Source of the DNA: Candidatus Bathyarchaeota archaeon | GTDB taxonomy: Archaea; Thermoproteota; Bathyarchaeia; Bathyarchaeales; DTEX01 | Assembly (NCBI GenBank): GCA_963714275.1 | Contig: CAVQNT010000006.1 | Span: 192,001 to 256,000, forward strand | Direction: 5' to 3' | Length of the DNA: 64,000 nucleotides | Part shown: piece by piece, positions 1-57,484 of the stretch | Numbering within the stretch: the stretch's first letter is position 1 | Layout: the number at the start of each line of letters is the position of its first letter | Program-made: the position numbers and the translations under genes | The notes under the pieces: model-generated | Seen by the model: only the letters and a program-made list of their open reading frames with translations | The model's database searches: none | What the model was told of the DNA's origin: nothing

Positions 1-144
1 ATTGGTTGATGTGTGAGAAGAATGGAAAAGAGGATGTTTTAGGTGTTTTTTGTCAAGACACAACCACTCTTATCACATTGCTTTTCTCCATCAACCATAA
101 TTCCAAAAAGGCGGGAGTGAAGGATAATAATCCAATCACATCAT

Positions 145-344
145 TTATGCTTCTCTGGAGGCTCTAGAAGCCGCGGCAACTCCAACCAGCAAGGCAATAA
201 TGATAAGGACTGATGCCATTGTCGTGGCTGAACTTGTCAGGTCAGCAGAGACAACTGCCATGAAGCCCATCCCAGTATGATTATGATGACTGCTATTGCA
301 ATCACGTAACCCAAGATGGGTCGGACTGTGTCCAATAATCCCAT
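145..344 (-). CDS. Small two-helix hydrophobic protein (~66 aa, one frameshift), candidate virion structural protein
   Basis: Manual translation gives MGLLDTVRPILGYVIAIAVIIIILG / MGFMAVVSADLTSSATTMASVLIIIALLVGVAAASRASREA* with one base missing near 270. GGTGGTG RBS upstream and a T-run downstream. Confidence 0.6.
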
Positions 345-401
345 TTTACATACACCACCATAAAGGCAGTTTCCTAGTACAATATTCTTGTCGGTTATAT
401 T

Positions 402-635
402 TTAAAGTGACATTGTACTAAATTTACCTTCTCTTCTCTTGGTTTGGTATCTTCTTATTGATGCCTTACCTTTATCAGTTTTGAAATATTTTTGTTGTGC
501 CTTCTTCACTGTAACCTTTCTCTTCAGTTTACCCTTCTCTGATTGGGTGTATTTTCTCAATGATAACCTTCCTTTAAGGGACTTAAAGTATTTCCTTTGT
601 GTCCTCTTCAATGCTTCACTTACCGTTCCCATCAC
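402..635 (-). CDS. Small highly basic repeat protein, putative nucleic-acid binding
   Basis: 77 aa, K/R-rich, with three copies of KYxx[ST]xKG[KR] (KYFKSLKGR, KYTQSEKGK, KYFKTDKGK). Confidence 0.6.
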   Translation of the reverse strand: MMGTVSEALKRTQRKYFKSLKGRLSLRKYTQSEKGKLKRKVTVKKAQQKYFKTDKGKASIRRYQTKRREGKFSTMSL

Positions 636-721
636 CCCATAAATGACAAGGTAGTTTACATGTAACGACTCTATGAAATGATTCTCTTAACCAATGATAA
701 AATCTGTTGAATAATGATTGA

Positions 722-1351
722 TTAGTCCCTTTTATCAAAATCTTTCATTGTATCATCATAGTTGTATGGAATATCTTGGCATAGAGCATTCAGTTGTTCC
801 TCGACATGGTCTATCTGGAAAATTGATTCTAAAAGATGTACTTGGATAAATCCACAGTTCACATTCAACAAACAAAAGGCATCATACCACAAATTCTTCT
901 CCATAACCCTCTGAGTATACTCTATCTTTGCTATCCTAACAGCCACATGGTGCCTAACTATACCCTTAACAATAGAGTTAATGACTAACTGTAAAACACC
1001 TTCATCCATGCTCAATATCTGGAAGCCAATGATAACTATGATGATATTACGTTCAAGGCAATCTCGTACTTGGTCTTTTGTCAAATTGTTCTTGAAAGAG
1101 ATGAACATGGCTTTGATAGTGGCTTCTGGATGAGCATCAAATTCATGGAGATATCTCATCCATCTATCTGGTTTGATGAAGCTCTTCATTGCAAAATCAT
1201 TTATTTGCCCAACAAGGATTTCATTACCTTTCACTGCATAAATGTCAGCACCAGATTGCCATGGTTGATGTGGAGGTAAAACCCAGCCCATCCTTCTAAG
1301 TGCTTCAGGAACCATACACTCACCAATTTGTGCAATGACATAAGAAGTCAA
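722..1351 (-). CDS. PD-(D/E)xK restriction-endonuclease-fold protein (divergent)
   Basis: GECMV..LRRMGW..GADIYAVKGNEILVGQIND pattern resembles the Mrr/Hjc-type nuclease core, but the usual Lys is not evident. Confidence 0.45.
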   Translation of the reverse strand: MTSYVIAQIGECMVPEALRRMGWVLPPHQPWQSGADIYAVKGNEILVGQINDFAMKSFIKPDRWMRYLHEFDAHPEATIKAMFISFKNNLTKDQVRDCLERNIIIVIIGFQILSMDEGVLQLVINSIVKGIVRHHVAVRIAKIEYTQRVMEKNLWYDAFCLLNVNCGFIQVHLLESIFQIDHVEEQLNALCQDIPYNYDDTMKDFDKRD

Positions 1352-1621
1352 TACAACAATGGTTGATAATAGAGTGGAAAGAATGGTAAAGTGGCTGTTC
1401 CATAATGTTTCTTGGCATGGGATGAATTTTTTTCAAAAGTGGGAGTGATTCGATTTTTAGATAGGTTTTGAGCATTTATTGGCTCAACCAATCATTGTTT
1501 CCACACACACAGCAATTTATAGACTTAACTTCTATAATAACTTACCATGACCCTTTATTTATAATAGTATGGTAAATTTAGGCTTTATTCCTCATTTTAA
1601 GGTGTTTTTGAGCCTATTCCA

Positions 1622-1634
1622 AAAATTTTATAAA
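1622..1634 (+). promoter_or_regulatory. Archaeal BRE/TATA-like promoter for the small-ORF cluster
   Basis: AAAATTTTATAAA about 35 nt upstream of the ATG at 1669. Confidence 0.45.
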
Positions 1635-1668
1635 GTCCCAAAGACAACAATTACTTAGATGATTTAAC

Positions 1669-1797
1669 ATGACAATAAGAGCATACAAATTCACTGGGAT
1701 AGAGGTTCATCAAAGAGAGAATCCAAACGAGTATTTTCGGCAATACTATCACAAGGTTAAGAAACAAAGAATGGCACAAAAGAGTGGACAGAAATAG
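1669..1797 (+). CDS. Small basic hypothetical protein (42 aa)
   Basis: Manual translation MTIRAYKFTGIEVHQRENPNEYFRQYYHKVKKQRMAQKSGQK*, first ORF after a TATA box. Confidence 0.45.
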   Translation: MTIRAYKFTGIEVHQRENPNEYFRQYYHKVKKQRMAQKSGQK

Positions 1798-1919
1798 ATT
1801 GGGCAGAAAACCAGCGACAAAGAAACAACTGAAAAAGCTTCATCGCCACAAATCATTCTCCATAAAACGTGCATACAGGCAGTTCGAAGAATATAGATGA
1901 TTGCCCATAAAAATGTGGG

Positions 1920-2405
1920 ATGTCACTCAACTTGAAGGGTCACAATTGGGGAGGACTTTGTAAAAAATGTGGGAAATCCCATCTACATGGAAGGCTCAAT
2001 AAATCAAGTTGGAACAAAGGTTTAACGAATCTTACTGATGAAAGGGTTGCAGAGTCAAGTAGAAAAAGAGCATTGTGGAACAAACTAAATCCACATGGTA
2101 TATCTTTTGAACAAAGAAAGAAAATAAGTTGTTATGCTATCAAAAGGTTTCAAGACCCACTTTGGAGACAATGGTTCTTTGAAAGAATGAGAGAAACCAC
2201 ATGGGAAAACTCAGAACGTAACCTTAAAATTAGTAAAGTACAGTTCATGGTTTGGATTAATCGGAAACACCAAATAGAAAATAGATTGGGTTATGTCATT
2301 ACACATCTCACGTGGGCTCATCTTTATGGTAAAGCCAAAGCACAAGAAATGAAAGATGATGCCTCTGTTCGTGCAGTAATTTGGTGGCAAAAGAATCACA
2401 AATGA
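1920..2405 (+). CDS. NUMOD3-like DNA-binding motif protein, virus-like
   Basis: N-terminal CKKCGKSH. SWNKGLTNLTDERV resembles the WNKGLT nuclease-associated DNA-binding motif. Confidence 0.55.
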   Translation: MSLNLKGHNWGGLCKKCGKSHLHGRLNKSSWNKGLTNLTDERVAESSRKRALWNKLNPHGISFEQRKKISCYAIKRFQDPLWRQWFFERMRETTWENSERNLKISKVQFMVWINRKHQIENRLGYVITHLTWAHLYGKAKAQEMKDDASVRAVIWWQKNHK

Positions 2406-2467
2406 AAGAGGACTTTGTAAATAGGACTAAAAACCGTTGGTTCAACAATTCAAAAGACTGATTATCA

Positions 2468-2689
2468 TTGCTATATGGGAGTAAGCTGGGTGAACTAGAT
2501 GCCAAACTAGTTGGAATAGTTGTATCTGATTTAGAGTTTGCTAGAAAGTGTCTTGTGGAGAAGACAGCCAAGTACAGTTATTATGAAAATACGGGACTTT
2601 TAGAACATTCCTATCTATATCCTAAGTACAATGGTGATAAACCCAAAATGGTTGAAATTCAGTTCCCAAATGAAGAGGAATATAGATGA
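2468..2689 (+). CDS. Hypothetical protein (probably starts near 2402 with a frameshift)
   Basis: ORF track; ATGA overlap with the next ORF. Confidence 0.4.
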   Translation: MLYGSKLGELDAKLVGIVVSDLEFARKCLVEKTAKYSYYENTGLLEHSYLYPKYNGDKPKMVEIQFPNEEEYR

Positions 2690-2886
2690 CAACACAAAGT
2701 GGTTCCTATCCAATGACCAACAATGTTTTGGCACGTTATCAGAATAAGGGAATTGTGCATCATTGTCCACGTTGTGGTAAGTCCTTCATTGTCCATGACA
2801 AGGTTCATGTTACCCGAAAAATGTGTATCATGAAGAATGTTATGAAGCAACAATCATTGATGTCCCAGATGAGGAAGAGGAAATAA
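2686..2886 (+). CDS. Small Zn-ribbon-like protein
   Basis: HCPRCGKSF motif; translationally coupled by ATGA overlap. Confidence 0.5.
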   Translation: MTTQSGSYPMTNNVLARYQNKGIVHHCPRCGKSFIVHDKVHVTRKMCIMKNVMKQQSLMSQMRKRK

Positions 2887-2890
2887 TGAC

Positions 2891-3046
2891 ATGAAGATTT
2901 GTAAGGTTTGTGGACGAGTTTATAATACTGTCCAAAAAGATACCTGTTGTGGAAGGCATGCTCGAACTCTAAAGACTAGAATAAAGAAAGAGAAAATCAA
3001 ACATGAGAAAGAACTAAGGCGCAAGTCTTTACTCATTGACCTTTGA
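2891..3046 (+). CDS. Small basic Cys-rich protein (51 aa)
   Basis: Manual translation MKICKVCGRVYNTVQKDTCCGRHARTLKTRIKKEKIKHEKELRRKSLLIDL*. Confidence 0.5.
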   Translation: MKICKVCGRVYNTVQKDTCCGRHARTLKTRIKKEKIKHEKELRRKSLLIDL

Positions 3047-3714
3047 AGCTCCATACTTGTATTAATTGTTCATGATAGGTACTTTCTACACTAAAAACAC
3101 TACCCTAAACAGTGATAAATACCTCCTTATTACGTATATAACAACATGCAAATTGGCTTTTTTAGGTATGTTTTCAATGGTTTTTGGTCATCTGATACGT
3201 TGTTTTTTAGCGTATTTTGTACTAAGTCCTCTCTGCAACATAGATTGGATACATCTTTTTGGGACATTGAAACGTATCCATTCTATTCCCATAAGGCATG
3301 TCCTTTTTAAAAATTGTTTAAAACTCTGTCCTCCCCCAGATGTAGGTTAAGGAATCGATTTAAAAGGGGCATTTCTGGTATCAATGAACCCATTTTAGGG
3401 GTAATGGCTTGGAAAAATAAATATAAAAAAAAGTGTCCCATATATATAATATGGTATGTACCCTCCCCTACGTCTAGTGGTTTTTGGGCTCGTGATTCAT
3501 TATGTAAAGAGTATCTAATTATTCTTTACATATCCTCATCAAATCCCTTGATTTCCATGCCCCAAGACTTTGTTTGTTTTTGATGTGATGTCATTGGATT
3601 CCTAAATGATTATTTAGGGTTTGAAATAGATTCATTGAAACCAAGCATTTTCCAAGTGAAATTGAAGCGAAAAAAAATCTAAAAAAAGTCCACTGAATCA
3701 TTTGGAATTTGATG

Positions 3715-3823
3715 ACTTTAGCACAGGCTTCAAAAGAGGCTCTAGGGCATGTAAAAATCACTGTTGAGCTTCGTCCAGTGCACTCAGAACTTCAGTACAG
3801 GCAAAAAGACAACTTCAGCACAG
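3715..3823. repeat. Three imperfect 12-bp direct repeats ACTTYAGYACAG
   Basis: actttagcacag 3715-3726, acttcagtacag 3789-3800, acttcagcacag 3812-3823. Confidence 0.7.
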
Positions 3824-3845
3824 AACAAATGATTAAAATTTAATC

Positions 3846-4110
3846 CCCAAACCCAAACCCAAACTACCTCACTCTACCTCATCTCTCTCTAGTAATAGGT
3901 ATAGAAACCAACAAACAAACAATCAATAAAAGAAACAGCTGCTTACTGCTTACTAGGTACTAGACATACTAGGTACTAGGCTTCTCGTGTCGTCAGTCAG
4001 AGACACGCACTCTCTCTCCCTTCACACATAATAAACCATAACTCACACACAAACTTGTGCGAGAGTAATATATACTAAATAAACAACACAATTAGACAGT
4101 CAGTCAGACA
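3846..4110. repeat. Cluster of micro-tandem repeats and hairpins
   Basis: (CCCAAA)x3 3846-3863; CTACCTCA x2 3864-3881; (AACA)x3 3910-3921; GCTTACT x2 3941-3954; TACTAGGTACTAG at 3951 and 3967; GTCAGTCAGA at 3992 and 4099; CGTGTC/GACACG stem 3986-4007. Confidence 0.75.
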
Positions 4111-4207
4111 CAGATAGTTACGCAGTGAACACATTTATCAGCTTTTCTTGCAGGTTAATATATCATTATGTGAAAACAGTATAATCGCTTTCCGACGCTG
4201 TTACTCG

Positions 4208-4882
4208 TCAACTTTGCTCTTCGGGCGGGGGTCTTCTAAAGTAATAACCCATTTTTTGTCTTAACAATTCTCTCGTTTCTTGTGATAATTGAAGTACTAT
4301 AGAGCTTAAGATGGTTTTATCCATGGGTTCAGCCTTTGCAATGTTTTGACAGTTAATTCTATTTATTGTCTTAAAACTAATCATTCTGTGTCGAGTAGTT
4401 ATTGTGAATTGTTCTTTAGTTTCTTCAAATTCGGCAATTGAGTTTTTGGGTCAATTATTTCTTTATACTTCAATTTTTTTCCGAGAGTGTATTCTGGAAA
4501 TAGCGGATTGCCTTCATATATAAAATAGGTTCTCTGCCCGAATTCTTTTTTGTTTAGGTAGTCAGCCTTCTCAGTATCTGTGAGTTTGTTCCATGTTTTT
4601 GGATGAGTAAAATTCTTGCTCATGCCTTCTTTATTCAAAGAAGTCAAATCATTTGAGAGAAAAGGATTATCGAAAAGTGCTGTATTGACTTCCTCCAAAG
4701 GTGTGAGAATTAGTGTCCTATTTCCAATATCACAGCAAGGGTCTAGTACAACTGAATACTGAGAATTTTCAATTTTAAACCTACACGGCTAAATGGTTTT
4801 TCAATATTTGGAACTATTGATTATAGCCTTTTACAACATCGCCAAATCTTAATCTGTTTTCAATTAAGGGACTGTAAAACAT
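4208..4882 (-). CDS. Hypothetical protein with PemK/MazF-like signature (~225 aa, frameshifted)
   Basis: Joined frames read MFYSPLIENRLRFGDVVKGY...YSVVLDPCCDIGNRTLILTPL...MISFKTI...LQLSQETRELLRQKMGYYFRRPP. Includes track ORF 4399-4698. Confidence 0.5.
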
Positions 4883-4891
4883 AATTGTAAC

Positions 4892-5119
4892 CTATTCTGA
4901 AGGAAGTTCGTTGATGTCCACAGAGGTTCCCTGCGTCTTTCTATCTTTCAGTGACCTGAAGTCTTCGTTGATTGCTACTTCCTCTATGCCGACAAATTTA
5001 CCATCCAAGGTTAACTTAACCAGAATAAGGTACTTGTCAAAATTACATAGCTTATGCGTGAATTGGCTTTCTGAATTTCCCCCTGTTACAGTTTTTGGTT
5101 TTCTGATTATTTCTGTCAT
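4892..5119 (-). CDS. Small hypothetical protein, middle gene of the three-gene module
   Basis: 75-aa ORF 6 nt downstream of the TIGR04255-like gene and 9 nt upstream of the next gene. Confidence 0.6.
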   Translation of the reverse strand: MTEIIRKPKTVTGGNSESQFTHKLCNFDKYLILVKLTLDGKFVGIEEVAINEDFRSLKDRKTQGTSVDINELPSE

Positions 5120-5125
5120 TTAATT

Positions 5126-5888
5126 TCACTTAAGCGTGCCAGTTCTCATATATTGCTTTACGGGTTCTTTTACGATGTTGAAATACTCATAATGAATTAT
5201 TTGATAAAGTTCGTCAGTAATCTGAAGATAGTCTTTGGAGGCTATATTAGTTTCGAAGCCATCAAAATCCAAAACTATAGCGTCTTTGCCCTGAGCATTT
5301 TTTATCTTTGTTTCTTGATAGATTAAGTCTATGGCTGCTCCTAGTACAATTTATAAACAAATATGAATCGGATACCTCGTTCATTGAGAATCTATCGGTT
5401 GGAAAAGATGAATTGTAAAGTCGTTTCAGAGTATCGTTATCACTGGTTGGTAATGGGCACTCATCAATATAACGTAAACCTATACGGCTTATTATGGGTA
5501 CATTAATAGTACTTAGGAAATTTCCGATAACGAACTCAATTGTATCTCTAAATTTTAGTTGTTCATTTGGGTTATTATAGGATTTATGCTTCTTTGAAAT
5601 AATACTAACGGAGTTAGTTTGTACCCTGATTTCGATTTCTTCTTTTGAAAAAAAAGTCCAAATTTTTGTTACGTCTGAAGGATTTAATTCTTCATCGAAG
5701 TCTTTCTTTCCAGCACGAAGTCGCTCACTTAGAAGCAAGTGCCGTCGCAAAACCAATTTAGAATCAGGGAATCTGGAGATTATTTTCTCCTGAAATTCTC
5801 CTATTTTTCCTTCTACTGAAAACAAATCTGGAAATTTAATCTCGAAAGCAACTTCTTTAATTGTTGGGTAAACGAAAATTTCGCTCAT
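5126..5888 (-). CDS. TIGR04255 family protein (C-terminal frameshifts)
   Basis: N-terminal PTIKEVAFEIKFP, central RIGLRYID, and VLDFDGF after the shift match my recollection of the family. Confidence 0.75.
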
Positions 5889-6019
5889 TTAAATCCCTCA
5901 GTGTTCCTCAATTTATTGTTTCGAAGGTAACATATAGTTTTTACGTATGAGGCACGTCGTGCTATAGGTGAATTAACCTTATTATGCTTTACATTATTTC
6001 TTCCTAATAAATCCAAGGC

Positions 6020-6236
6020 TTAAACATCTGCTTGTCTAGGAAACCACGAATCCCTTTCTCCTCTTAGACATTTCGCAAGTAAAATAGCCTCTTCATCAAT
6101 CAAAGTCTCAAGTGTTTGCCTTTTACCTACCTTTATTCTTGGAATATCAATAATTGTCTCAAAGAAACCATCCAAACTTTTCATGAGTTCTCTTGTTTTG
6201 GTTTCATTCAAGTATTCTCTCTTGCCCTTTCTTGTC
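6020..6236 (-). pseudogene. cas1: 3' remnant of a solo/casposon-type Cas1
   Basis: TRKGKREYLNETKTRELMKSLDGFFETIIDIPRIKVGKRQTLETLIDEEAILLAKCLRGERDSWFPR resembles the C-terminus of archaeal CRISPR-independent Cas1. No upstream coding continuation and no CRISPR array in the window. Confidence 0.6.
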
Positions 6237-6334
6237 TAGCTAGCTACTAAAGGTATTCCACATTCAACATCTATCGCATTTCAAGAAAGGGCTCTTTTGT
6301 TCTAATAGGAATGGTATAATGTTTTTATGTTCAA

Positions 6335-6586
6335 ATGCTCATTTACTATTTTATGGAGGCTATAAACGAAATAGTGCAATTATTCGTAAGCCATCCAGAA
6401 TCAATATTTATAATTATCATAGCTTGGTTTTTGATTATATTAATTTTGGATAAATTACTTAAAGTGCATATTACTCCTTGGTGGGGATTGTTCAGTCTTT
6501 TGTTGGCGGTAGGAGTTGGAGTCTTTTACATAATTTATTATAAACAAATTCTAGGTCTTAATTCATATGCTTTCTTAATCTTCTAA
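6335..6586 (+). CDS. Small membrane protein
   Basis: 83 aa with two hydrophobic segments. Confidence 0.5.
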   Translation: MLIYYFMEAINEIVQLFVSHPESIFIIIIAWFLIILILDKLLKVHITPWWGLFSLLLAVGVGVFYIIYYKQILGLNSYAFLIF

Positions 6587-6626
6587 CTAAGTGAGTGAAT
6601 GATAGGACTAATCATCTTATAGTATT

Positions 6627-6893
6627 TCATTCTCTTGTTGCCTCTTCAAGATTATTTCTTGTTGCCTCTTCAAAGTTCTTTTTCTGCTTTTCCTCTTGTC
6701 TCATCAGTTCCATTAATTTCACAAGATAAATATTCGGACTATTAGTTCGGTAGTAAGATATCTGATAGTCTGTAGAAAACCCTAATAATTGACAAAAAAT
6801 CAAGTGACTATTATAATTCCGTTGAGTTAACTTAACACATATATTTATTACTGCCCCTGATGATTTTTTTTCAGCCGGATGACGAGAAGGCAT
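6627..6893 (-). CDS. Hypothetical protein
   Basis: 88-aa ORF. The C-terminal EEATR duplication comes from a 17-bp direct repeat at 6633-6649 and 6657-6673. Confidence 0.4.
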   Translation of the reverse strand: MPSRHPAEKKSSGAVINICVKLTQRNYNSHLIFCQLLGFSTDYQISYYRTNSPNIYLVKLMELMRQEEKQKKNFEEATRNNLEEATRE

Positions 6894-7017
6894 TTGTTTG
6901 ACCTTAATGATAGTTCAGAGTTAAACGGACGGCTAAAACCCAAAGATGTGTCTCGGACCAGATGATCGTAAATTTTCTGGTATAGATAACTTCATTTCAA
7001 TGTTTCTAGTTTGTTTT

Positions 7018-7308
7018 CTATTTGGTCTTTCGCAGGATTGGTAACTCATAATTTTCGCCGATGAACCAACCGAAGATTGCTGTTAACGCTCCGAAAGCAA
7101 TCATGAGAAGCTGCGTAAAAATGTCAAAGGTGAACACCGCTGACGGACCTGCGATGAGAAATAAACCTAACACGTAAACTGAGGCTCCCAACACAGCTGA
7201 GACAGCCATACCCATGGTTCCATGAACTTTTTTTCCCAACACGAAACCTGTAAAAAACGTAAGCGGGATCACAAGCCAACCAAGGTCCATTTTTGTCCGT
7301 TGCTCCAA
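7018..7308 (-). CDS. Small membrane protein (three TM segments)
   Basis: 96-aa hydrophobic ORF. Confidence 0.6.
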   Translation of the reverse strand: MEQRTKMDLGWLVIPLTFFTGFVLGKKVHGTMGMAVSAVLGASVYVLGLFLIAGPSAVFTFDIFTQLLMIAFGALTAIFGWFIGENYELPILRKTK

Positions 7309-7536
7309 TCAATCTTTTTTGGGAAACTTAACCTAAAAAGGATTACGTTAAAGAGTTTATATGTTCGAAGAACAATTTCGCATTGAATTCAAACCCAAAG
7401 ATATATAATATAAAATTGGATTCACCCCATGGCAACAATCAGTATAAATTATTTTTTTAACCGATGAAAGCATGTCAAAAGAAGGGAGTTTTATAATTTT
7501 GTTTCTGAAATGGGATTCGCGCCACGTTCCCTCATG

Positions 7537-38437: not shown

Positions 38438-38710
38438 GGTGTCTGTGTATCAAAAACCTTGGTCCGACATGGGTCTGCATGAGCGTGAGAAACAACATCG
38501 AAGAAGGAAGCTAGAAATATCATCAGAATAATGAAAATGATAACCTTTATTAGCACCGTCCATCGTTTACTCATTAGCTTTCAGAAAAAGCGAAAATAAT
38601 CGACTTCCCATCGGGCTGGAAGGCCAACAGTCCGTTGGAGGAATAATCCTGAATAGTCCCATATGTAACCATTTAGTCGTTTCAAAACCTGAAAGGGGAA
38701 TTTTCATAAA

Positions 38711-41700
38711 TTGATTAATTCTGAAGATGCATATTTAGTACAGAAGGCCCTCTTAGAGGAGAAAGGGTTAGTTAGGCAACATCTTGATTCATACAACGAG
38801 TTCGTGGAACGCGGTCTTCAACAAGTAATAGACGAGGTCAGCGAAGTCGAAATCGAGGTTCCTGAAGGACCATACAAAATAAAGTTCGGCAGAATATTCA
38901 TCGTACGCGAAATCGAAAACGACGTCATTTACGGTCCCTACGTAACCGAGGTCGACGGCACTCGACACGAAATCTATCCCATGGAAACACGGCTGAGAAA
39001 CCTAGCATATTCAATGCCCCTCTCCGTCGAGATGACGCCGATAATTGACGACAAGGAAATGGAGAAAGAACTCGTTTACATCGGCGACCTGCCAACCATG
39101 CTTAAGTCGAAATACTGTCTTCTTTCAGAACTTTCCGAGGAAGAATTGATCAGACAAGGCGAAGACCCTCTTGACCCAGGCGGCTACTTCGTCGTAAACG
39201 GGTCAGAACGGGTCATCGTAGCCATTGAAGACTTGGCGCCAAACCGCATACTCGTGGACATTGACTCAAGAGGAGTAAACCCCGTTTATCAAGCAAAAGT
39301 ATTCTCCACTACCGTTGGGTTTAGAGCCAGAATAGAACTCAGACTGAAGTCAAACGGTTCACTCCACATTTCGGTGCCAGGTGTCCCGTCAGAAATACCA
39401 TTCATAATCATGATGAGAGCCTTGGGTTTACAGTCCGACCGAGAAATTGCAGAAGCGGTTTCTGCGGACAAGACCATTCAAAGCGAACTTGAACCGTCAT
39501 TTGAGATGGCGGCTGACGTCGGAACCGCTGAAGACGCCTTGCTGTTCATTGGCAACAGGGTAGCTCACGGTCAAGTTAAAAGCTACAGGCTCATGAAGAC
39601 GGAAACGATTGTTGACAGAAACTTTTTACCTCACGTCGGCAGAACGACTGACCAAAGAAAAGACAAAGCCTACTTCCTCGGCGAGATGGCTTCACGCGTA
39701 ATCGAGCTGAAGCTGGGAAGACGAAAACCCGACGACAAAGACCACTTTAAAAACAAGAGGCTGAAGCTCGCAGGACCACTTCTCGCAGACCTTTTCAGGG
39801 TGGCCTTCAGAAACCTGTGCCGCGATATAAAGTACCAGCTTGAAAGAATGGGACTGAAAAGACGCATGATCAGCGTCTCAATAGCCGTAAGACCAGGCAT
39901 AGTCTCAGACAAGACTTCAACACTCGTTGGCAACAGGGAACTGGGGCAGAGGACGAGTCGGAATCACACAGCTTCTCGACAGAACAAACATGATGTCAAC
40001 TCACAGCCACCTAAGAAGACTGCAGTCCCCGCTTAGCCGCAGCCAACCCAACTTCGAAGCCCGAGACCTTCATGCGACGCACTGGGGAAGGCTTTGCCCA
40101 AACGAGACACCTGAAGGAGCAAACTGCGGGCTCGTTAAGAATCTGGCTTTGTCAGCGTCTATTTCTGTGGGTTTAGACCTCGAAAAAGTCAAACAGATAC
40201 TTTACAGGAGAGGCGTTGTTCCCCTTACCGAAGCAAGCGAGACTATACGTACCACTGGAGCCAAAGTGTTTATTGACGGCTGCCCGATTGGGTACCACGA
40301 TTCTCCCAAGGAGTTCGTGACAGAGATGAAAGATGACCGAAGAAGAGGAGAACTCTCACCCGAAATTAACTTTGCATATTTTTCAAAAGCTCACGGCATG
40401 AATGAGGAAGCCTACATAAATTGTGACCAAGGCCGAGTTCGACGGGCACTTATAATCGTCGAAGACGGTGCACCAAAACTTGGGAACGAAGAAACAGAGA
40501 GAATCCGTTCAAAAGAATGGAATTGGGAAGACCTCATAAAACGAGGTATAATCGAGTACTTGGATGCTGAAGAAGAGGAAAACGCCCTAGTTGCATTGAA
40601 CCCGGACGAAATCGTACCCGGAACATACCACCCACCTCGAAATAACGTCTTACTCGATTCTTGGAACCTGCGCGTCGCTGATACCTTACGCTGAACATAA
40701 CCAGTCTCCACGCAACTCTTACGAGTCCGCCATGTCTAAGCAGGCTTTAGGCATTTACGCGGTGAACTACCCGTTAAGAGTTGACTCGCGGTCGCACATA
40801 CTTCACTATCCGCAAATCCCTGTAGTCCAAACTAAGCCATTAGACATCATTGGGTATAACCTTAGACCTTCCGGGCAGAACTGCGTGGTAGCAGTTCTTT
40901 CGTTCGAAGGCTACAACATGGAAGACGCCTTAATCTTCAACAAAGCATCCATCGAAAGAGGCATAGCCCGCTCATCCTTTTACAGAATCTACGACGCCGA
41001 ATGCCGCCAATATCTCGGAGGCCTAAGAGACCGCCTCGTAATTCCTGAGGCTGGAACCCGCGGATACCGTGGGGAACAGTATTACCGTTTCATCGAAGAA
41101 GACGGCGTGGTCAATGTCGAAGCTGAAGTCGCAGGAGGAGACGTCCTGATTGGCAGGATAAGCCCGCCACGTTTCCTCGAAGAATACAAGGAGTTCGAAA
41201 TTAAAGGACCCACCATGAGGGATTCTTCAGTTGACATGCGACCCTCCGAAAACGGTATTGTTGACGCATCGTTCATCACCGAAACCAACGAAGGAAGCAA
41301 ACTCGTGAAAGTTAGGGTACGCGACGAACGTATCCCGGAGTTGGAGACAAGTTTGCTTCACGCCACGGACAGAAAGGCGTCATAGGAATGATTGTTCCAC
41401 AAGAAAACATGCCCTTCAGCGTCGACGGAATTGTGCCGGACATCATGATTAATCCGCATGCGTTTCCGTCAAGGATGACGATTGGGCAGTTCCTAGAATC
41501 TCTCGCTGGGAAAGTAGCATCCGCCAAGGGAGAATTTATGGACGGAACCCCATTCATCAACAAGAAGGGCGACGAGCTCAAACAAATGCTTATCGACCTA
41601 GGTTTCAGTTACAGCGGCAGAGAAGTCCTGTACGACGGTGTCACAGGGCAAAAGTTCGTCACCGACATTTTCATGGGAGTCATCTATTACCAGAAGCTTC

Positions 41701-42081
41701 ACCACATGGTTGCTGACAAAATCCACGCTAGGGCAAGAGGTCAAGTCCAAATGCTTACGAGACAGCCGACGGAAGGAAGAGCCAGAGGCGGCGGATTACG
41801 TTTCGGCGAAATGGAAAGAGACTGCCTAATCGGTCATGGTGCAGCGATGTTGCTTCGTGACAGGCTACTTGAGGAATCAGATAAATACGTGCTTTACGTC
41901 TGCGAAAGTTGCGGACTCATCGCGTACTACGACATAAAACAGCGGAAATATGTTTGCCAGATTTGCGGAGAGCAATCCAGGGTTTCGCCTGTTCAGGTTT
42001 CATACGCGTTCAAACTTTTGTTGCAGGAGTCTAATGAGCTTGTGCGTAACTCCTCGGTTAAGGCTTAAGGAGAGGGCATAA
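38711..42081 (+). CDS. rpoB: DNA-directed RNA polymerase subunit B, unsplit (several frameshifts)
   Basis: [45 protein letters not shown]. Confidence 0.97.
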
Positions 42082-53733: not shown

Positions 53734-54943
53734 TCAGCAGACAGGCATTTTTCCCATGGCAAGGTCCATGCAGAATTTGTCTATGTTTTCAAGCTCGTAG
53801 TCGACGACTTTTTCGGCTTCCTTCCTAATCTTTTCAAAAGCTGCACGGTTATCTGGGATTAGCTGCACAGCCGCAACTGCGGGCTGGTCAATAGGTTGCC
53901 CTATTTTGCTCAACAACCAAACATAAACTTCCTTCACGCCTGGAACCTGCTGATGAACCTCGTTCGCCATCCGATGAGTCAAAAGATTATAGATTTTCCC
54001 CACATGACTAACAGGATTCTTCCCAGCCGCAGCCTCAGAACATTGAGGTCTGTTAAGCGAAATTAATCCATTTACTCTGTTTCCTCTTCCTACTTGTCCT
54101 GAGTCGACTCCGTCTGCGCTTGTACCGAGTACAGTTAAGTAGATTCCGTCTATGCCTCTGCCGGGAGTGTCTAAGGTGTTCAGCTGCACCTGTATCTTGG
54201 CAAAGTTATTGTTTTCTTTAACGAACTGAGTTATGCGTTCGAGAATTTCGCCTTTCTTCCCGAAATATTGTTTTTCGTCATCGATGAAACGGTCAACGAA
54301 AGCTATGGAGATTATCGAGCTCCAATTCATCGTCTTTCCGGAGACCCATCACCTTAACATCCTCCCCGGACTCAGGAAACCTCTTCTTAAACTCTTTTGA
54401 GTTCACGTAATTCTCCGTTTTAAATACAGCCATCTCCGTCTTAGTCAGTGGTGCCCATCCTACAGCCGCCGAAGTATCATTCGCTTCGAGGACCTTTCCG
54501 CCTCTTCTGAAAATGTCTGTGAGCGCAGATGAACCGGGCCGAATCTCCACCTGATAAACCACGTGCTTGCTGGGGTCCACGAACCTCAGGTTTTTCTTAA
54601 GCCAGTCTTTCGCTGTCTGAACCGCGATTTCTTCAACGGGGATTTCGTCTCCGTCCACTTTATAGGTTGCTCTGTCTCCGAAAATCAGCTTCATCGGCTT
54701 CTTCATTACGCCACCTTTGAACCGTGTTTCAACCTCTCCAGCTACCAAGAGAGACTTGTCTATGTTGTGATGCAGTATGGTTCCCGCTTTTTTGAGGTAT
54801 TCTTTGCTCAGGCTGACTGAAACCTCGTTCATTATGCTGTCGCACATTGTGTCTGGGTGTCCGAGTCCCTTTCGCTCAACCACCTCAATCCTCTGATTTT
54901 GTAACGGGACCTGTTTTAAAGCTGCAACGATTATGTTCCTCAT
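53734..54943 (-). CDS. mat: Archaeal S-adenosylmethionine synthetase (frameshifted)
   Basis: VERKGLGHPD, HHNIDK, ANDTS, GEDVKVM, GRGNR, AGKNPVSHVGKIYN. Confidence 0.95.
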
Positions 54944-55136
54944 TGAAGATTCACCAATCCAATTTTCCATGAGATAATAACTTCTTTAAATATATATTTT
55001 ACGGAATAAAAACTTCATGAAACATGCATTATTATATATTTATCTTTCGTGTTTATCAAGAAATAGCTCTGACCAACAGAAAAGCTGATATGAACATAAC
55101 GCATATACACCATATAAAATAACTGGGGGTTATTGT

Positions 55137-55788: not shown

Positions 55789-57484
55789 CTAGCCTATGTA
55801 CTTGTTGACTATAGGCATCTTCCATCCGATTCCGAAAGCCTGTTTTGTGATTTTTATGCAAGGAACCGCCTGCCACCTTTTGTATTCAGTCCTTCTTATT
55901 CTTCTATAAACGTCATCGACCACGGTTTCGGGATAACCCTTCTCGACCAGTTCTTTTCTGCTTCTATGATGTTCGATTATTTCGTCAACCATGGGGCTGA
56001 CAACATCAAAGTCGAAAGGATCAAACTGACTTTCTTTTAGCTCAGGCGACGGCTTTTTATTAAACACATTCTCAGGAATCACTTTTCGACCAGCCTTTTC
56101 ATTAACATATTCAGCGAGTTGTAAACATCGAGCTTACTCACATCCCCAAGTGCCCCCAACCCGCCAGCCATGTCTCCGTAAAGTGTACAGTATCCCAACG
56201 CAAGTTCAGTTTTGTTTCCCGTGTTTAACACTAAAATTCTCAAAGATTTCAGACGGTTCGAAACATCCATGAGGCAGTTTCCTCTTGCCCTAGGCTGGAT
56301 GTTTTCGTCTGCAATCGGGTCATCCTCTAATTTGTCAACTCCAAAATGTTTTCTAATCGCTTCAAGGGGTTCCTCAAGCGTCCTTTTATAGCTCTCAACA
56401 ATAGCCTGTACTGGAAATTTGATGAAACAGATTCCCAGATTGTTCGCTAGCTTTTCCGCATCAGTCTTGCTGTGTTCACTTGAAAACTTCGACGGCATAG
56501 AAACGCCAATGACGTTTTCTCCACCCAAGGCTTCAACCGCTATACAAGTTGTCAATGACGAATCGATTCCGCCACTCATTCCCACAACGGCTTTCTTAAA
56601 ACCAGTTTTTCTATAATAGTCACGAATACCCAATACTAACGCGTTGAATTTTTCTTCTTCTCCGTTGTATTTTGGAATACTTACTTCTGATGCTGTCCAG
56701 TTTTCTGGGTCAATCTGGACGGTCACTATGTCCTCTTGGAATTGTTTACCAAACGCAATAAAGTTTCCCTCAGCGTCCACAGCCAGGCTTTGCCCATCAA
56801 AAACAAGTTCGTCTTGACCGCCAACAAGGTTAACATATACTATAGGGACATGCAGTTTTTGGGCTTTTTCTTTTAACAGTTTTTCGCGTTCAAAATTTTT
56901 TCCACCGTAGAAGGGTGATGCTGAAATATTGACAATCAACTGTGCTCCACGTTCAACAAGAATGTCAGTTACTTTTATTCTGTATTCTTGGTCCCACAGG
57001 TCTTCGCAGATTTCAACACCGAGCTTGACTTTCTACCATTTATGAGTACTTCAACTGGTTTGATATCTTCTTCCTTATTAGGCGTGAAATATCTGTCCTC
57101 ATCAAAAACATCATAGGTCGGTAACAATGTCTTGTAAACAACGCCAGCTAAATTATGTCCCTGAAAAACTGCTGCAGCATTGAACAAGTTTCCGTTTAGG
57201 TCTTGGTCAACAAAACCAACAATAATGATTTCATTGGAGTTTTCTGAAATAATCTTATTTACTAATTTTCTGTTCTCTTCGATAAATGTTTTTTCAAACA
57301 AGAGATCCTGAGGCGGATAACCTGTGACCGCAAGTTCAGGAAAAATAACAATGTCAGCCCCATATTTTAGAGCATTATCCAAGAATTTTTTCATTTTTTG
57401 TACGTTACCAGTCAAGTCGCCTACTGTTGAATTAATTTGAACCATTCCTACTTTCAATTGATTTTGGATTTCAGTAACCTCCAT
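55789..57484 (-). CDS. nadE: Glutamine-dependent NAD+ synthetase (frameshifted)
   Basis: Nitrilase domain (FPEL..GYPPQDL, YDVFDE) plus SGGIDS, ENIQPR, TGNKTE..GYCTLYGD. Confidence 0.93.

Follow-up and report, generated by a model that had tools for sequence, protein, structure and literature searches.

A three-gene operon on a bathyarchaeal contig

We analyzed a 64,000-nucleotide stretch of a Candidatus Bathyarchaeota archaeon genome (GenBank assembly GCA_963714275.1, contig CAVQNT010000006.1, positions 192,001 to 256,000; hereafter, the window). At positions 4208 to 5888, it carries three consecutive minus-strand genes, which we read as a probable tripartite toxin-antitoxin (TA) module. Gene 1 (5126..5888) comes first and encodes a TIGR04255-family protein of ~253 amino acids (aa) when read through one frame change near 5330. 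Gene 2 (4892..5119) is intact and encodes a 75-aa acidic protein, a predicted antitoxin or adaptor. Gene 3 (4208..4882) encodes a predicted toxin of ~225 aa, with frame changes near 4820, 4785, and 4435. The intergenic gaps are 6 nt (genes 1 and 2) and 9 nt (genes 2 and 3), which reproduces the tight spacing and positions reported in an original prediction made from the sequence alone. Going forward, we refer to the three genes together as the triad.

That prediction called the first gene TIGR04255-like. Indeed, its first 208 codons (5265-5888) score 55.2 bits (E 8.6e-15) against TIGR04255, an NCBIfam subfamily model with a curated cut-off of 30 bits, while Pfam has no family for gene 1 at E ≤ 1. 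The C-terminal part of gene 1 (the last ~60 codons) lies in the other frame and aligns to homologues. Gene 2 matches the 83-aa middle gene of an intact triad (L003; phmmer E 1.1e-9) and can be aligned with 41 middle genes of other triads; this family has a median isoelectric point (pI) of 5.2. The pieces of gene 3 are collinear with intact 227-234-aa homologues (P0002-P0004, 42-49% identity), and once the frames are joined, all of the motifs quoted for it earlier are present: RFGDVV, VVLDPCCDI, ILTPL, and ETRELLRQKMGYYFRRP. Genes 2 and 3 each occur as a single copy in the host genome, and neither has a match above noise in Pfam, NCBIfam, PADLOC, or PHROGs.

The triad is conserved across archaea and bacteria

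A gene 3 alignment, used to search a single genome from each prokaryotic species, yielded 44 loci. In 42 of these (42 of the 43 with upstream DNA), gene 3 is immediately preceded by genes 1 and 2, in the same order and on the same strand. The two exceptions are a locus at a contig edge and a solo gene 3 in a Bathyarchaeia genome (L025, 4700-5392), where a 230-aa homologue lacks the two upstream genes; this is unique among the 43 testable loci. Conservation of the triad across genomes had been set beforehand as a test that could refute the original prediction, and the prediction came through it. The gene 3 family comprises 192 cluster representatives (50% clustering, E ≤ 1e-3, 1.84 billion proteins searched), each ~200-235 aa. 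With this many representatives of the third gene and the triad present at 42 of 44 loci, the arrangement is far beyond chance.

The 42 triads are compact, with median gaps of -4 nt between genes 1 and 2 and +3 nt between genes 2 and 3, and four of them contain split open reading frames (ORFs). No fourth gene family recurs around the triad loci. A relative from the same taxonomic family (G013) has an intact triad of 256, 83, and 211 aa. The TIGR04255 partners of gene 3 in intact triads score 70-88.6 bits over model positions 2-249 of 252. Weak gene 3 matches also occur in ~525-aa ORFs of relatives (L004 and L005). The layout is that of a type II TA system, with a small gene adjacent to a putative toxin gene, and the middle and third genes co-vary.

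Archaeal hosts of the triad are Bathyarchaeia, Methanomethyliaceae, Methanophagales, ANME-2, Methanosarcina, Methanotrichaceae, Methanocellaceae, and Pacearchaeota. Bacterial hosts include Planctomycetota, Zixibacteria, Ignavibacteria, Desulfobacterota-type lineages, Omnitrophota, Mycoplasmatota, and others. The full triad is also found on two IMG/VR contigs; a tblastn search of triad genes 1 and 3 against plasmids gave no match.

The third position of TIGR04255 operons is a toxin slot

More generally, TIGR04255 genes head tight operons of three genes. In two fetched sets of loci, a second gene directly adjoins or overlaps the end of the TIGR04255 gene in 36 of 39 and 27 of 30 cases, and a third gene is present in 30 of 39 and 24 of 30, with the misses falling mostly at locus ends. 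The second and third genes form co-varying clusters. A Pfam scan of 48 third genes identified PIN (seven), PemK_toxin (three), HEPN (one), DUF7689 (five), and AAA_21 (one) domains, plus one HicA below the cut-off. On a 12-kb Vibrio parahaemolyticus plasmid (L092; CP063527.1, 158-2105), TIGR04255, a 179-aa hypothetical protein, and an annotated zeta-toxin gene stand in a row. Because PIN, PemK, HEPN, and zeta occur there, the third position of TIGR04255 operons is a toxin slot. The DUF7689 third genes (L059, L066, L068, L104, and L107; E 1e-23 to 1e-43) have their own middle-gene family, and their position predicts that DUF7689 is a candidate toxin. The sensor or chaperone, antitoxin, and toxin logic of the original prediction gains independent support: sibling operons do end in PIN, PemK, HEPN, or zeta toxins, while the roles given to genes 1 and 2 and the toxicity of gene 3 are predictions.

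One further operon class (L103, L110, L112, L113, L115, L116, L118, L122, and L127) has middle genes of ~220-290 aa, five of them with an Xre-type helix-turn-helix (HTH) domain; these are the five found among the 27 middle genes of the second set. The third genes of this class are ~260-280 aa, belong to no Pfam family, and give a weak gene-3-like profile match (E 1e-4 to 0.05).

The family is distributed sporadically. Out of 401 genomes sampled from each of three phyla, TIGR04255 is present in 4 from the window's own phylum, 43 from a Desulfobacterota-type phylum, and 72 from a Planctomycetota-type phylum; a genome has at most four copies, and none was found in 14 model organisms. The last 2 kb of an unverified record for the P2-like Ralstonia phage YO139_2 (L094; ON170239.1) contain TIGR04255 followed by 165-aa and 146-aa genes, and the middle gene resembles the largest unnamed middle-gene cluster ("WDG...EPDG.I.FEW" pattern). 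Altogether, the distribution is patchy, multi-copy, and mobile, extending to plasmids, the P2-like phage record, and IMG/VR contigs.

A natural toxin swap

Two TIGR04255 operons, L064 and L067, differ in what follows the first gene. The two TIGR04255 proteins share 85% identity over all 257 aa. The middle proteins match (57% identity) only in their first 82 residues, and their last ~45 residues are unrelated. The third gene encodes a 223-aa gene-3-like protein in L064 and a 122-aa PemK in L067. Another PemK module, L086, shares the PemK-linked C-terminal tail of the L067 middle protein. This is what a two-part antitoxin looks like, and the middle protein may have one half for TIGR04255 and the other for the toxin.

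The exchange extends beyond this pair. By hhalign (96.2%, E 2.5e-9, 162 columns), the gene 3 family and the "QGD...SQxCD...FFxR" third genes found in other TIGR04255 modules are homologous. A quick maximum-likelihood tree was built from 68 TIGR04255 proteins. In it, those that accompany the gene 3 family group into one clade (support 99), whereas the partners of the "QGD...SQxCD" third genes are scattered, with eight changes for eight rows. One clade with 100% support mixes four gene-3-like, three PemK, and one unassigned third gene. Over the whole tree, the third-gene labels need 18 changes, compared with a minimum of 8 and a shuffle average of 30.7.

Predicted fold of the third protein

Invariant residues of the gene 3 family are R12, G14, D15, C56, N89, F127, and K194 (numbering of an intact homologue, L008). 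The AlphaFold2 model of this homologue is confident (predicted local distance difference test [pLDDT] 95.4, predicted template modeling score [pTM] 0.90). The top Foldseek matches of the model in the PDB are nearly all MazF and CcdB (E 0.05-0.5, probability up to 0.98, template modeling score [TM] by target up to 0.66). With VIA-align, the model aligns to MazF-mt3 with Z 10.3 (root-mean-square deviation [rmsd] 2.9 Å, 98 of 105 residues), to Staphylococcus aureus MazF with Z 10.2 (113 of 116 residues), and to CcdB with Z 9.5 (rmsd 2.7, 94 of 96 residues), covering 93-98% of these three chains. Z reaches at least 8 in 119 of 998 chains, and the best 50 entries listed are all of MazF/PemK/CcdB type. 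Unrelated models usually peak at Z 7-8 with this aligner, so the match is above background but not overwhelming, and its strength lies in the full-domain coverage and the uniform list.

The alignment spans model residues 8-203, so that a core of ~110 residues is interrupted. DSSP places a helical block at residues 73-117, which is probably the main insertion in the MazF/CcdB core; the insertion would amount to roughly 45-90 residues. We predict that gene 3 represents a new, very divergent branch of the MazF/CcdB fold that is unrecognizable by sequence. ESM Atlas feature matches for the L008 proteins are to unnamed clusters or to TIGR04255 itself. A PemK-like fold for the third gene, which was another test set beforehand, is thus supported by the model (Z 9.5-10.3 to MazF/CcdB), but a PemK family match and profile similarity did not appear, as described below.

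MazF, an RNase, and CcdB, a gyrase poison, are indistinguishable by fold, and the target that we infer for gene 3 would be RNA, as for MazF, or gyrase, as for CcdB. Gene 3 could be a CcdB-like poison of topoisomerase or of another protein target and not a MazF-type endoribonuclease, which we consider rather unlikely. CcdB aligns to the model nearly as well as MazF does, and the invariant R12, G14, D15, C56, N89, and K194 have no established match to MazF catalytic residues. On the other hand, MazF chains rank first and make up the majority of the listed entries, and a true PemK fills the same slot in the 85%-identical module, although neither of these points decides the target.

The TIGR04255 protein as a putative accessory

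The model of the L008 TIGR04255 protein (pLDDT 88.8) has two similar beta-alpha-beta(3-4)-alpha halves. Its best Foldseek match is AdoMetDC/prozyme (E 2.9e-4, TM 0.26-0.29), followed by YwmB, TBP, and rolling-circle Rep initiators, all pseudo-twofold alpha/beta sandwiches with low TM. These matches point to an architecture and not a family. SecB is not among the Foldseek matches listed for the gene 1 model. Across the family, no residue reaches 90% conservation, and the "DxD" of its "LDxD" strand reads "ExT" ("WETxV") in one clade. Because of this lack of conserved residues and the replacement of the "DxD," the alignment argues against an enzyme, and TIGR04255 is more probably a binding or scaffold protein. 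By analogy to the SecB-like chaperone of toxin-antitoxin-chaperone (TAC) systems, it would most likely hold or stabilize the antitoxin and couple toxin release to a trigger.

The main alternative for the role of TIGR04255 keeps the same module but makes the protein a transcriptional autoregulator, supplying the DNA binding that is missing from the middle protein. The model for this would be omega-epsilon-zeta, in which the order is accessory, antitoxin, and toxin, the antitoxin has no DNA-binding domain, and omega is a small ribbon-helix-helix (RHH) repressor. TIGR04255 operons have the same regulator-antitoxin-toxin order, one of them ends in an annotated zeta toxin, and Pfam assigns neither an HTH nor an RHH domain to most of their middle genes. 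Foldseek also lists DNA-binding saddles, namely TBP and the rolling-circle Rep initiators, with probabilities of 0.8-0.87. However, the TM values of these matches are low (0.25-0.38), and the top matches, AdoMetDC/prozyme and YwmB, do not bind DNA. Unlike omega, TIGR04255 is a 250-aa acidic protein without an RHH domain (family median pI 5.7). One middle-gene class already has an Xre-type HTH of its own (the five noted above), and the module occurs in both archaea and bacteria, whose promoters differ. We therefore regard an autoregulatory role as unlikely and favor the reading of TIGR04255 as an antitoxin keeper.

A probable tripartite TA-like module

In our judgment, the triad is likely to be a mobile, self-contained tripartite TA-like module, probably for abortive infection or addiction, that joins a TIGR04255 accessory to a modular antitoxin and an exchangeable toxin. 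In the mechanism we propose, gene 3 would be a growth-arresting effector in which the MazF/CcdB-fold core is interrupted by a helical insertion, and gene 2 would be its cognate neutralizer. Gene 1 would be a conserved, non-enzymatic accessory with a duplicated TBP-like fold. In the wider family, the middle protein tracks TIGR04255 with its N-terminal part and the toxin with its C-terminal part.

Several results weigh against this interpretation. We infer both the toxicity of gene 3 and its neutralization, as well as the role of TIGR04255. Neither the window pieces of gene 3 nor its intact 211-aa homologue has a Pfam match at E ≤ 1, and this includes the PemK/MazF family PF02452. When gene 3 alignments A1, A6, and A9 were compared by hhalign with a 37-sequence MazF alignment, the probabilities were 0.2%, 0.1%, and 0.24%; the sole alignable stretch is nine columns around "RxGDV" (probability 0.2%). 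Sequence-profile searches of the PDB with alignments A1, A3, A4, and A8 gave chance matches alone, and Foldseek found no PDB match to the gene 3 model at E ≤ 0.001. The MazF/CcdB fold is thus a prediction from one model and one second-look aligner. The family has a median pI of 6.2 and so is not basic, unlike many RNase toxins. PADLOC-DB 2.0 has no family for the five window pieces at E ≤ 1, and the 12 proteins of four intact triads gave a single chance-level match to it (RecD_like, E 0.0099, 12.2 bits). Among middle proteins of different module types, hhalign detected no common domain, which does not support a universal TIGR04255-binding element. Neighboring genes at 24 of 43 triad loci are housekeeping or unassigned alone; at the other 19, in line with a mobile distribution, an integrase, transposase, restriction-modification, HipA, PemK, HEPN, NACHT, Schlafen, or similar gene lies within the two nearest neighbors on each side. 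Finally, the window copy itself may be dead, as it contains four frame changes at about eight times the density of housekeeping genes.

Some of these same observations would fit a triad that is not a conflict system at all but a three-subunit accessory function of mobile elements, such as replication, partition, or regulation. There is no PADLOC match, many loci have housekeeping neighbors, gene 3 is a toxin by prediction, and TIGR04255 loosely resembles TBP and Rep-like folds. Against this, bona fide PIN, PemK, HEPN, and zeta toxin domains stand third in sibling operons, gene 3 has a predicted MazF/CcdB fold, and the patchy, multi-copy distribution is typical of TA modules. We consider a non-conflict function very unlikely and retain the TA-like module as our interpretation.

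Genomic context of the window copy

The triad is carried on a low-GC (guanine plus cytosine) island that occupies positions 1..7500 of the window (no strand assigned). Composition profiles place its left limit ~2 kb before the window and its right limit at ~7500, with a GC content of 0.33-0.38 inside vs. ~0.45 outside. At the left edge of the island, ~1.1-2.2 kb left of the window, there is a tyrosine integrase in three fragments (G000:C6:189757-190900; Pfam Phage_integrase, best E 1e-9). Searches in and beside the island found neither a tRNA nor an Rfam family. A scan for sigma-70 promoters and terminators showed no enrichment, and the host is in any case archaeal.

A cas1 remnant had been reported next to the triad, and it is real. 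Directly upstream of gene 1 (6029-6232, minus strand) lie the last ~70 residues of a Cas1, which tblastn aligns at 63-65% identity to intact Cas1 copies elsewhere in this genome. The Pfam Cas1 model failed to reach the remnant at E ≤ 1, while direct tblastn did. Seven Cas1 matches are spread over five contigs of the host genome, a number suggestive of casposon-like elements or multiple CRISPR loci. A relative carries a deletion that joins Cas1 to the C-terminal half of gene 3 in one protein (P0275, 294 aa). The locus is decaying in this lineage.

Frame changes and assembly quality

The window triad has four frame changes in 1.68 kb, three in gene 3 and one in gene 1. Elsewhere in the window, there are at least 16 frame breaks in ~55 kb, and these affect essential genes: rpoB is in four pieces (38693-42065), rpoA′ is broken inside domain 2 (~43150), and SAM (S-adenosylmethionine) synthetase (53737-54985) and NAD synthase (55792-57484) each have a frame break. 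Because essential genes across the window carry frame breaks, we conclude that the assembly is error-prone, with frequent indel errors, and that pseudogene calls in this genome need reads.

These errors bear on whether the window copy is intact in the organism, with all four frame changes being assembly errors. Besides the broken essential genes, near-identical sequences from other assemblies speak for it. A look-up of clusters at ≥90% identity returned full-length versions of gene 1 (253 aa) from two other assemblies (P0278 and P0279), as well as a 133-aa piece of gene 3 (P0274) that reads through the 4435 break. At least these two of the four frame changes, in gene 1 and at 4435, are thus absent from near-identical sequences; they are private to the window assembly and probably represent errors. 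The damage to the N-terminal part of gene 3, however, may be real: P0274 begins at the same internal TTG as the window gene 3 and has an early stop at a different place, so gene 3 is damaged in a second assembly too. The density of frame changes in the triad is ~8 times that of the window's housekeeping genes, while homopolymer runs are just ~1.25 times denser, and the Cas1-gene 3 fusion in a relative indicates that the locus decays. A scan of JGI (Joint Genome Institute) metagenomes with the window gene 3 piece returned one distant relative and no near-identical copy. A fully intact window copy is possible but somewhat doubtful. As assembled, the window copy is non-functional and lies in a decaying integrated element.

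Other genes in the window are frame-broken as well. These are gamma-glutamyltranspeptidase (GGT), Memo, cytidylate kinase, HypF, and NnrE/NnrD, and all of the affected genes together span 9149-60093.

Comparison with known systems

The closest parallel is TAC. The SecB-like chaperone of TAC holds the ChAD element of the antitoxin and is titrated by a phage protein (10.1101/2024.02.24.581848). The TIGR04255 module and the TAC systems HigBAC and CmdTAC (Mets et al., bioRxiv 10.1101/2024.02.24.581848) share three genes, a conserved accessory with exchangeable TA "warheads," an antitoxin with one accessory-directed and one toxin-directed part, and a patchy, mobile distribution. They differ in the accessory, which here is TIGR04255 (~250 aa) with a duplicated beta-alpha-beta-alpha fold and no SecB among the matches listed. 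They also differ in gene order, with the accessory first here and last in TAC, and in the middle protein, whose accessory-linked part is N-terminal here, whereas ChAD is C-terminal. A further difference is that the TIGR04255 module occurs in archaea as well as bacteria.

Gene 3 also invites comparison with the toxins of MazEF, PemIK, and CcdAB. Its predicted fold covers nearly the whole MazF/CcdB length and includes the N-terminal "RxGDV" strand. As in those systems, a small acidic gene precedes it, and a true PemK takes the same slot in sister modules. In contrast to them, gene 3 has neither a PF02452 match nor profile-profile similarity, is about twice as long, and has the helical insertion (model residues ~73-117) and the invariant C56. 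The triad also has an unlike, unrecognized antitoxin and an obligatory third gene.

Searches of full-text literature found no paper naming TIGR04255, IPR026349, or DUF7689; these searches covered main texts, and supplementary tables of the NetFlax type could list the family. Papers on tripartite TA systems (TAC, HipBST, and reviews) do not name the TIGR04255 family. Passages on three-component systems in Makarova et al. 2009 (PMC2701414) do not describe a TIGR04255 module. Thus, the predicted tripartite TA module with a new accessory protein and a new, predicted MazF/CcdB-fold branch is apparently undescribed.

More tentatively, and at a little under an even chance in our estimation, TIGR04255 marks a large undescribed class of tripartite TA or abortive-infection modules in bacteria and archaea. 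Such modules would combine a sensor or antitoxin keeper with a TBP-like fold, a two-part adaptor, and a toxin exchanged among PIN, MazF, HEPN, zeta, DUF7689, and the long MazF/CcdB-fold family. With this class, the TAC principle would have arisen a second time, independently.

Implications

If the tripartite reading is correct, an NCBIfam family annotated just as "sporadically distributed" would gain a function and a testable architecture, and this for a protein present in 11-18% of sampled genomes in two bacterial phyla. It would add a new accessory protein class to three-part TA systems and a new branch of the MazF/CcdB fold that is unrecognizable by sequence, and it would make DUF7689 and several unnamed third genes predicted toxins. 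The swap between PemK and a gene-3-like protein on nearly identical TIGR04255 and adaptor backgrounds is a ready-made experiment on the modular build of antitoxins. Finally, the module would span archaea and bacteria, which is rare among characterized three-part systems.

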